Of a DNA stretch of 64,000 bases, positions 21,015-21,785 are shown piece after piece. Below the pieces are notes generated by a model. It ran no database searches and had not been told where the DNA came from. It was given only the letters and a program-made list of their open reading frames with translations. Source of the DNA: Eledone cirrhosa (Eukaryota). The stretch is taken from NCBI GenBank assembly GCA_964016885.1, contig OZ024745.1:93806001-93870000 (forward strand), written 5' to 3'. Numbering within the stretch: the first letter of the stretch is position 1; each line of letters starts with the position of its first letter. The translations under genes were made by a program, and so were the position numbers.

Positions 21015-21774
21015 TATAGAGAATTAGTACATCTACCAACATATGCGTACAGATGTACACTCATGCGAGCAAATATATAAGTTATGTCTTAGTACCTATG
21101 TGGTTCTATGCAGGTGAATGCAGAACAATTATATGAAAGACGTAAAATAAGAAAATAAAAAAAATTAAAAATCAACTTACTTACTAAAATTTTAGTAAGT
21201 TGATTTTTAATTTTTAAAATTTTCTTATTTTATGTCTTTCATATAATTGTTCTGCATTCACCTGCATAGAACCACATAGGTACTAAGACATAACTTATAT
21301 ATTTGCTAGCATGAGTGTACATCTGTACACATATGTTGGTAGATATACTAATTCTCTATATTCATCTCCAAATTATTTGTTGAGCAAAACTGGCCAAAAT
21401 TTACTGCTGTTTCATGGTAGTAGTAGGCTCTTGTCATAATACCACCCCGCTCCTAACTGATTAACCTCGGTGTCACGTGATTGATTCTTTAGAATCTGCC
21501 ACTGACCAGAGGCAGTGAAATTTTTTCAGTGCTCCGGAATTTAGTTCACGCTAGCTTCATTCCATCTACTGAATTATTATTTTTATATGGGTTCCTAGTG
21601 TCCGCGCATTGCCTGGGAACTTAGCTGAGAATAGACTCCCTGATGACGCAATGAATTCTCTATAGTTATATATATTATGTAACTATATTTATCCCATTAC
21701 AGAAACTAATTAGTTGGAGTGAAAATTTTAGTAAGTAAGTTGATTTTTAATTTTTAAAATTTTCTTATTTTACG

Positions 21775-21785
<11 letters not shown>
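21015..21785 (+). mobile_element. Non-coding Penelope/retrozyme-like element: inverted arm + 536-nt unit + partial second unit
   Basis: Palindrome 21015-21189/21190-21360; direct repeat 21186-21245 about equal to 21722-21785; hammerhead at 21635-21720; flanked by (TA)n. Confidence 0.75.
21635..21720 (+). ncRNA. Type-I hammerhead motif with extended stem II
   Basis: ACTCC-CTGATGA-CGCAATG...CATTACA-GAAAC(TAATTA)GTT-GGAGT. Perfect stem I, palindromic stem III AACTAATTAGTT, two mismatches in basal stem II. Confidence 0.75.

Follow-up and report, generated by a model that had tools for sequence, protein, structure and literature searches.

Asymmetric pairing of short and long ends in head-to-head insertions of a non-coding hammerhead retrozyme in Eledone cirrhosa

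We analyzed a two-armed repeat in a 64,000-nt stretch of the Eledone cirrhosa genome (the window; contig OZ024745.1, positions 93,806,001 to 93,870,000). Its two head-to-head arms were likely produced by a borrowed Penelope-like reverse transcriptase (RT) that primed on both sides of a break in (TA)n, probably on a circular RNA, a reading to which we give a probability of about 0.7. By its sequence, the unit is a high-copy, dispersed, non-coding non-LTR retrozyme with a hammerhead motif. A strict pairing of one short-ended with one long-ended arm holds, to judge from the insertions compared, across four families in this genome.

The window element and its family

Self-comparison of the window gave direct repeats at 21186 and 21722, spaced 536 nt apart with a restart that runs for ~60 nt, and an inverted repeat of 168 nt and 96% identity (21014-21181 against 21194-21361). 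The whole palindrome spans 21014-21361 and is centered on a self-complementary octamer at 21186-21193. The original prediction had described a 536-nt unit that starts at 21186 and restarts at 21722 for ~60 nt, with its first ~170 nt mirrored as a palindrome, and both repeats agree with it. The element reads as two arms overlapping by the 8-nt palindrome, which is the head-to-head junction common to both. The long-ended arm (21014-21193, minus strand) covers unit positions 1-172 and has its 3' end at ~21018, running into (TA)7; the short-ended arm (21186-21785, plus strand) consists of a full lap of 536 nt plus 60 nt, and its 3' end merges into (TA)20. Between the two end sites lies a 112-nt "tail" (21245-21357, plus strand) with two predicted hairpins, the longer showing compensatory changes. 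A lap in the window is 536 nt, compared with 540 nt in most family monomers, one 4-nt GTAA unit being missing. The (TA)n that had been noted on both sides is there: the (TA)7 (21005-21017) on the left flank separates the element from a neighboring, separate two-armed insertion of another family, family B (20277-21004, with (GA)56 at its upstream-type end), and the (TA)20 (21780-21820) lies on the right flank, at the short end. Within the element there is no stop-to-stop frame of at least 120 aa, in keeping with the original claim of no ORF; one low-complexity frame of 159 aa overlaps its final 30 nt. The GC content of 20001-22000 is 0.32, below the 50% criterion for retrozymes.

A predicted type I hammerhead motif of the Penelope type lies at 21635-21720 on the plus strand, with a cut predicted after GUU at 21715, coordinates that had been given exactly from the letters alone. 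Stem I comprises 21635-39 and 21716-20, the core 21640-46, stem II 21648-53 and 21695-700, the GAAA 21702-05, the palindromic helix III 21706-13 and the GUU 21713-15, all on the plus strand. The motif has an extra base after A9, a 6-bp stem II and a palindromic helix III. An extra base after A9, G10.1-C11.1 and a palindromic helix III are traits of Penelope hammerheads, and those with such traits are thought to work as dimers (PMC4209133). It departs from the canonical core in the C-A facing at the base of stem II and in the GUU triplet, and an Rfam scan of the window did not call it at the gathering threshold. The window copy itself has a C-A mismatch in stem II, absent from 23 other core-intact units (best-matching loci L002-L030). 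With this mismatch and a predicted fold worse than that of locus L004, the copy may be dead. Of 67 near-full units across the family, 53 keep an intact core and 14 have point changes or are cut short; stem II occurs in four compensating versions.

We recovered 59 cut-to-cut monomers (508-571 nt, mostly 540 nt) and aligned 29 of them, picked for diversity. Within this alignment 98.1% of cells were paired over 41 named pairs; stem II was 100% paired, with double changes at 2 of its 6 pairs, and in the long tail hairpin double changes affected two pairs. Because this same 29-monomer alignment served to derive the structure, the controls favor it. As predicted circles, 8 of 8 monomers had an MFE z of -4.1 to -6.1 (25 shuffles each).

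The assembly of 3.0 Gb that we searched with the unit yielded 152 matches from the 40 scored of 2,205 candidates, the best copies being 95-98% identical. Exact patterns of an end next to a microsatellite gave 450 matches for the long end and 2,412 for the short end, with 0 for each reversed control; both counts are lower bounds, and exact end patterns cover the subfamilies, which diverge by up to ~20%, unequally. Tandem arrays exceed 5 units. The unit is not single-copy, and its copy number, tandem arrays, covarying type I hammerhead and lack of coding sequence bear out the original claim of a retrozyme-like element.

The copies might instead be 5'-truncated debris of an unseen coding Penelope-like element whose pseudo-LTR is the unit. 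Its hammerhead and tail are of the Penelope type, the neighboring family B is contiguous with a coding element, and the DNA search scored only those 40 of 2,205 candidates. Against this, the sequence upstream of the hammerhead was the unit again in 130 end-anchored loci and 30 best-match loci, and no same-strand reading frame adjoined the unit in the frames listed or the coding families tested. A relaxed hammerhead pattern gave 23 matches that read, from the sequence of the hits rather than their flanks, as internal-deletion or subfamily variants of the retrozyme family. The original prediction had named the terminal repeat of a coding Penelope element as its refutation; within the three coding Penelope-like families tested the unit aligned with none, and we regard this explanation as very improbable. 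The unit has no open reading frame with the RT and GIY-YIG domains of an autonomous Penelope-like element and shares no pseudo-LTR sequence with an autonomous partner among those three families, the one physical connection being the chimera in L106 (below). It does show the partial tandem with an inverted, 5'-truncated copy, the tail at one end and the microsatellite target that mark the Penelope-mobilized class.

Two fixed ends that pair short with long

The arms of the family end at two sites 112 nt apart, a short end at unit position 60 and a long end at 172. To follow their pairing we used 140 loci anchored on one end pattern, taken in chromosome order from contig C1 with some already sampled loci passed over; removal of 6 duplicates and 4 near-identical neighbors left 130. 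An inverted arm was present in 94 of these, and 80 paired short with long, none paired like with like and 14 were unclassified. Among loci anchored on the short end (n=82), the inverted arm was long in 48, short in 0 and elsewhere or unresolved in 8, and 26 had one arm; among those anchored on the long end (n=48), it was short in 32, long in 0 and other in 6, with 10 having one arm. On inspection, several of the "other" and "one-arm" loci look like further or very small long arms. A lenient alignment had suggested three long/long pairs; these alignments ran into TA tracts, and stricter alignment turned all three into short ends. Two fixed 3' ends paired in this way indicate that the foldback is a 3'-anchored copy in its own right, a further reverse transcript whose fixed 3' end lies 112 nt past that of its partner. 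The Penelope-type inverted insertion of the original prediction thus stands, while its view of the foldback as a 5' arm does not.

The same rule appeared in a very young sister retrozyme with a 469-nt unit, a one-arm copy of which, with its own type I hammerhead, lies in the window at 24188-24670 (minus strand). All 18 of its two-armed loci with both ends readable, out of 23 examined, had one end at 226-235 and the partner end at 305; of the rest, 1 had a masked end and 4 had one arm. A coding Penelope-like element followed the rule in all 8 two-armed loci where both ends could be seen. The tails measure 112 nt in the retrozyme, 74 in the sister, 168 in family B and 38 in the coding family. 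Each of the two retrozymes has an end at the 3' foot of a long hairpin, whose GUACAUC stem is similar between them, and a second end that follows a U-rich tract; the order of these ends along the RNA is opposite, and the likeness is short and may be due to chance. An older, 76% relative of the sister retrozyme was seen in L180, and in the sister insertion L249 both flanks read alike outward, as if the target were an inverted duplication.

A single priming event could also yield an inverted arm, by fold-back or self-priming of the cDNA at palindromes, with endonuclease resolution leaving the longer end; endonuclease resolution and antisense self-priming have both been proposed for Penelope elements (PMC3846280, PMC8557442). 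The junctions occupy scattered positions, and many show an overlap of 1-10 nt or a short duplicated filler. Several of them are symmetric or palindromic, as single priming would have it, that of the window element among them, and its octamer is also the junction in L030, L058, L154 and L162. The two arms also share a subfamily nearly always, only L197 of 31 clearly differing. Most junctions, however, are asymmetric, with 5' positions that are unrelated between the arms, and in short insertions, L037 and L058 among them, 112 nt of the long arm are absent from the short arm. Moreover, L106 and L197 join two different RNAs while their pairing is still short with long, and we find single priming quite improbable. 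Since L197 pairs arms from two subfamilies, short and long, the asymmetry is not simply one RNA with two sites.

L106 (G000:C4:27551000-27560900) is a chimera of three templates, in which a short-ended retrozyme arm stands head-to-head, with no TA between, with an RT fragment from a different Penelope-like family, followed by the 3' half of a young coding element, which ends at that element's own long site. It was the only coding-element chimera among 314 loci. The coding family involved gave 25,868 first-look candidates, and its scored copies were 93-98% identical in protein. Its copy L137 holds an open frame of 923 aa with RVT_1 and a weak C-terminal GIY-YIG match. We found no alignable sequence between the retrozyme and this coding family of L106 and L137, and at least 2 further RT families occur. 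The mobilizing enzyme may come from the family of L137, which is young and has a C-terminal GIY-YIG, an assignment we make only tentatively and would not bet on at even odds. Coding copies in L107-L142 belong to a very abundant, young family that has a hammerhead-like motif with a non-canonical core and a cysteine cluster upstream of the GIY-YIG.

Family B is likewise young (98-100% identical, 3,051 candidates). Its two ends lie 168 nt apart, and in at least 8 of 25 loci an inverted arm stops at the upstream one. In L313 family B is contiguous with a coding element that has a C-terminal GIY-YIG, and no canonical hammerhead was seen in the family.

Template, 5' ends and terminal repeats

The original prediction had placed the 5' boundary of the unit only ~6 nt downstream of the predicted cleavage site; the junction is the 8-nt palindrome, and we observed no significant excess of arm 5' ends at the cut, with 5 found against 2.2 expected from per-base stop rates over 205 arms (P=0.07; L042 and L215, cut by locus ends, and four near-duplicates excluded) and 8 against 6.0 over positions 528-538. 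The 5' ends thus lend no support to the predicted cleavage in vivo. Their 2-3-fold enrichment fell on unit positions 1-30, which closely follow the cut and are AT-rich and palindromic, and where alignment ends are imprecise. A cleaved end may also have given run-off that was then trimmed back to the nearest palindrome. The predicted cut site was read through by 157 of the 205 arms, and more than once by 41, which upholds the claim that reverse transcription passed the monomer junction.

Traces of the template were sought in variants private to one locus. Among 25 young loci, 17 such variants were shared by all pieces of the insertion that cover the position, in 4 cases over both arms, and the same loci held 150 private singletons. 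Laps within one array differed by 0.2-3.6% and were no closer to each other than to the nearest copies elsewhere in the young subfamily; the partner arm ranked first in similarity in only 25 of 64 insertions and fell within the top 10% in 52. Most lap-to-lap differences in the 540-nt family were singletons, and L006 and L011 had neighboring laps in near-identical pairs (0.2-0.9%).

Because the 540-nt family has aged, we turned to the sister retrozyme (loci L293-L312, chosen as best matches with long arrays). Its copies are 99-100% identical, which makes it apparently still active, its arms reach 13.5 units, and 89 of 164 monomers are identical. Private variants of L304, L305 and L306 occurred in 7/7, 11/11 and 9/9 laps, respectively, in both arms, and a deletion in L311 in 8/8 laps. 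Variants alternated with a period of 2 in L300 and recurred with a period of 4 in L298, possibly from dimeric and tetrameric circles. L295 had a variant lap once per arm without periodicity, a pattern that fits a long linear multimer. This pattern, and the difference between the two arms of L300, fit a circular template less well, and later tandem duplication can mimic both the sharing within an arm and the periodic variants. As a whole the lap patterns are as expected from rolling on monomeric or small multimeric circles, and the template RNA was, to judge from the DNA, probably circular. Target-site duplications of non-LTR retrozymes, where present, exceed 4 bp; insertion L295 is flanked by a direct repeat of ~10 bp, and in the 540-nt family the (TA)n hides any duplication.

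Double priming could also have used an uncleaved linear multimeric transcript. In that case template jumps or unequal crossing-over would build the arrays, while the hammerhead would be mostly silent. The missing excess of 5' ends at the cut site, the L295 variant and the near-identical neighboring laps of L006 and L011 would suit such a template. So would two reports: uncleaved RNA was the main substrate of a Penelope-like protein in vitro, ribozyme cleavage being dispensable (PMC11167929), and local tandem expansion is favored for animal retrozymes (bioRxiv 10.64898/2026.07.22.740005), for which 8 of 9 Xenopus dimers are reported without cleavage. Set against it are the dispersed arrays of the sister, which at 99-100% identity reach 13.5 units and have fresh TA-flanked ends, the private variants present in all laps of both inverted arms, and a hammerhead core and stem II kept through compensatory changes in subfamilies ~20% apart. 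We consider the linear transcript an unlikely template and favor circles.

The long ends carry up to 35 CT units. Runs of (CT)n with at least 4 units were found at long ends in 9 of 19 loci of the CTCT or other type, 3 of 14 of the ATCT type and 0 of 16 of the CTTT type, counted in short-anchored loci and so unbiased for the long end. More than 2 CT units were found internally in 0 of 29 aligned monomers; one internal copy in L197 has three. Longer motifs were reiterated at an end in L155 and L205. Three host paralogues, 75-86% identical, have a short TA tract only and no GA run at the place where the window has the (GA)56, two insertions and the (TA)20. These patterns suggest that the terminal repeats likely come from reiterative copying at initiation; later slippage may lengthen the runs. 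A search with the joined flanks found no empty-site pattern for the window insertion, because its left flank is another insertion, that of family B.

The hosts of the nested insertions are presumably Helitron-like, to judge by their end motifs. Helitron-like non-autonomous repeats with a terminal hairpin and a CTAG-like end (510 candidates) lie at ~20000-20275 and 21815-22172. Elsewhere the window holds a MITE-like short element with 18-nt inverted repeats starting TTAA (23025-23237), a 38-bp minisatellite of 59 copies with 92% matches (31991-34233), LINE-type fragments with RVT_1 and a PHD finger (15783-17405 and 28828-29817, both minus strand) or a PHD finger only (11745-12575, plus strand), and a weak tRNA match of 29.9 bits that is the only Rfam hit in the window and probably a SINE head (49332-49395, minus strand).

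Known systems, mechanism and significance

Retrozymes and their circular RNAs are known (PMC7229834, PMC7761336). The unit resembles the non-LTR retrozymes of animals (PMC7229834; bioRxiv 10.64898/2026.07.22.740005) in its non-coding head-to-tail repeats of low GC, each unit with a single type I hammerhead, in its monomers, dimers and multimers, in its stable predicted circular fold and in its co-occurrence with Penelope-like elements, and its 540 nt fall within the 51-972 bp range of the latter study. Two-armed inverted insertions with complementary ends and (TA)n or (CT)n flanks, as seen here, are not described for retrozymes in the available parts of these two papers. An alignable coding pseudo-LTR is given for 24 of 57 Xenopus retrozyme families (bioRxiv 10.64898/2026.07.22.740005), whereas we found none among the three coding families tested here.

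Compared with EN+ Penelope-like elements (PMC8557442, PMC3846280, PMC11167929), the unit lacks a frame with RT and GIY-YIG, and its tail of 112 nt is strictly complementary between arms, while theirs, of 30-40 nt, is optional. Inverted copies, (TA)n targets and a tail that is often one-ended are known from Penelope elements (PMC8557442, PMC3846280). Non-autonomous elements of Chlamys such as MRC1 (PMC8557442) are likewise non-coding, Penelope-mobilized, multicopy head-to-tail insertions, but they share 3' sequence with autonomous partners and belong to a clade without canonical hammerheads, whereas the retrozyme has a hammerhead and no alignable partner among the coding families tested. The element type is already known; the pairing rule, the long tail, the traces of a rolling template and the terminal repeat addition were not found described, and by their sequences the insertions carry a stricter Penelope signature than we found in print. 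The literature searched, mostly outside subscription journals, held no report of obligate complementary pairing, two-armed retrozyme insertions or terminal (CT)n addition.

A purified Penelope-like protein nicks both strands and extends them, starts at two internal sites of its RNA and is predicted to form a dimer (PMC11167929). In the available part of that paper the two start sites are not tied to two arms, and no difference in start site was seen between the strands. Taken with our data, we propose the following course. Multi-lap loci would be transcribed, and the hammerhead, likely acting as a dimer, would free monomers and small multimers that are ligated into circles, which we think probable. 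A GIY-YIG endonuclease would nick both strands of TA-rich DNA. The two 3'-OH ends would then prime at different sites inside the RNA, short for one and long for the other, mostly sharing a single molecule but sometimes using two; we hold this step a little more firmly than the circles. At initiation the enzyme would stutter, adding (CT)n where the template has CT beside the priming TA, to which we lean somewhat less firmly than to the circles. Each cDNA would travel round the template over a variable length, and the two would join via a few complementary bases, in the window element the 8-nt palindrome.

A wider proposal, to which we give slightly less than even odds, is that Penelope-like RTs act in asymmetric pairs, obliged to prime on either side of a break at two different kinds of internal RNA site, even across two RNAs; that ribozyme circles take advantage of this and are rolled into arrays of more than 10 units; and that a telomerase-like stutter at initiation seeds (CT)n and (TA)n microsatellites genome-wide. 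PMC8557442 and PMC11167929 list the origin of tandem and inverted Penelope insertions and of one-sided tails among their open questions, and bioRxiv 10.64898/2026.07.22.740005 treats the integration of animal retrozymes as unresolved. The one-short-one-long rule across four families makes Penelope insertion directly testable, as two protomers, two sites and one break, and the sister family, with copies 99-100% identical, and the 923-aa open RT frame in the same genome provide ready substrates and a candidate enzyme. The terminal (CT)n runs would link these relatives of telomerase to repeat addition and to the birth of microsatellites.
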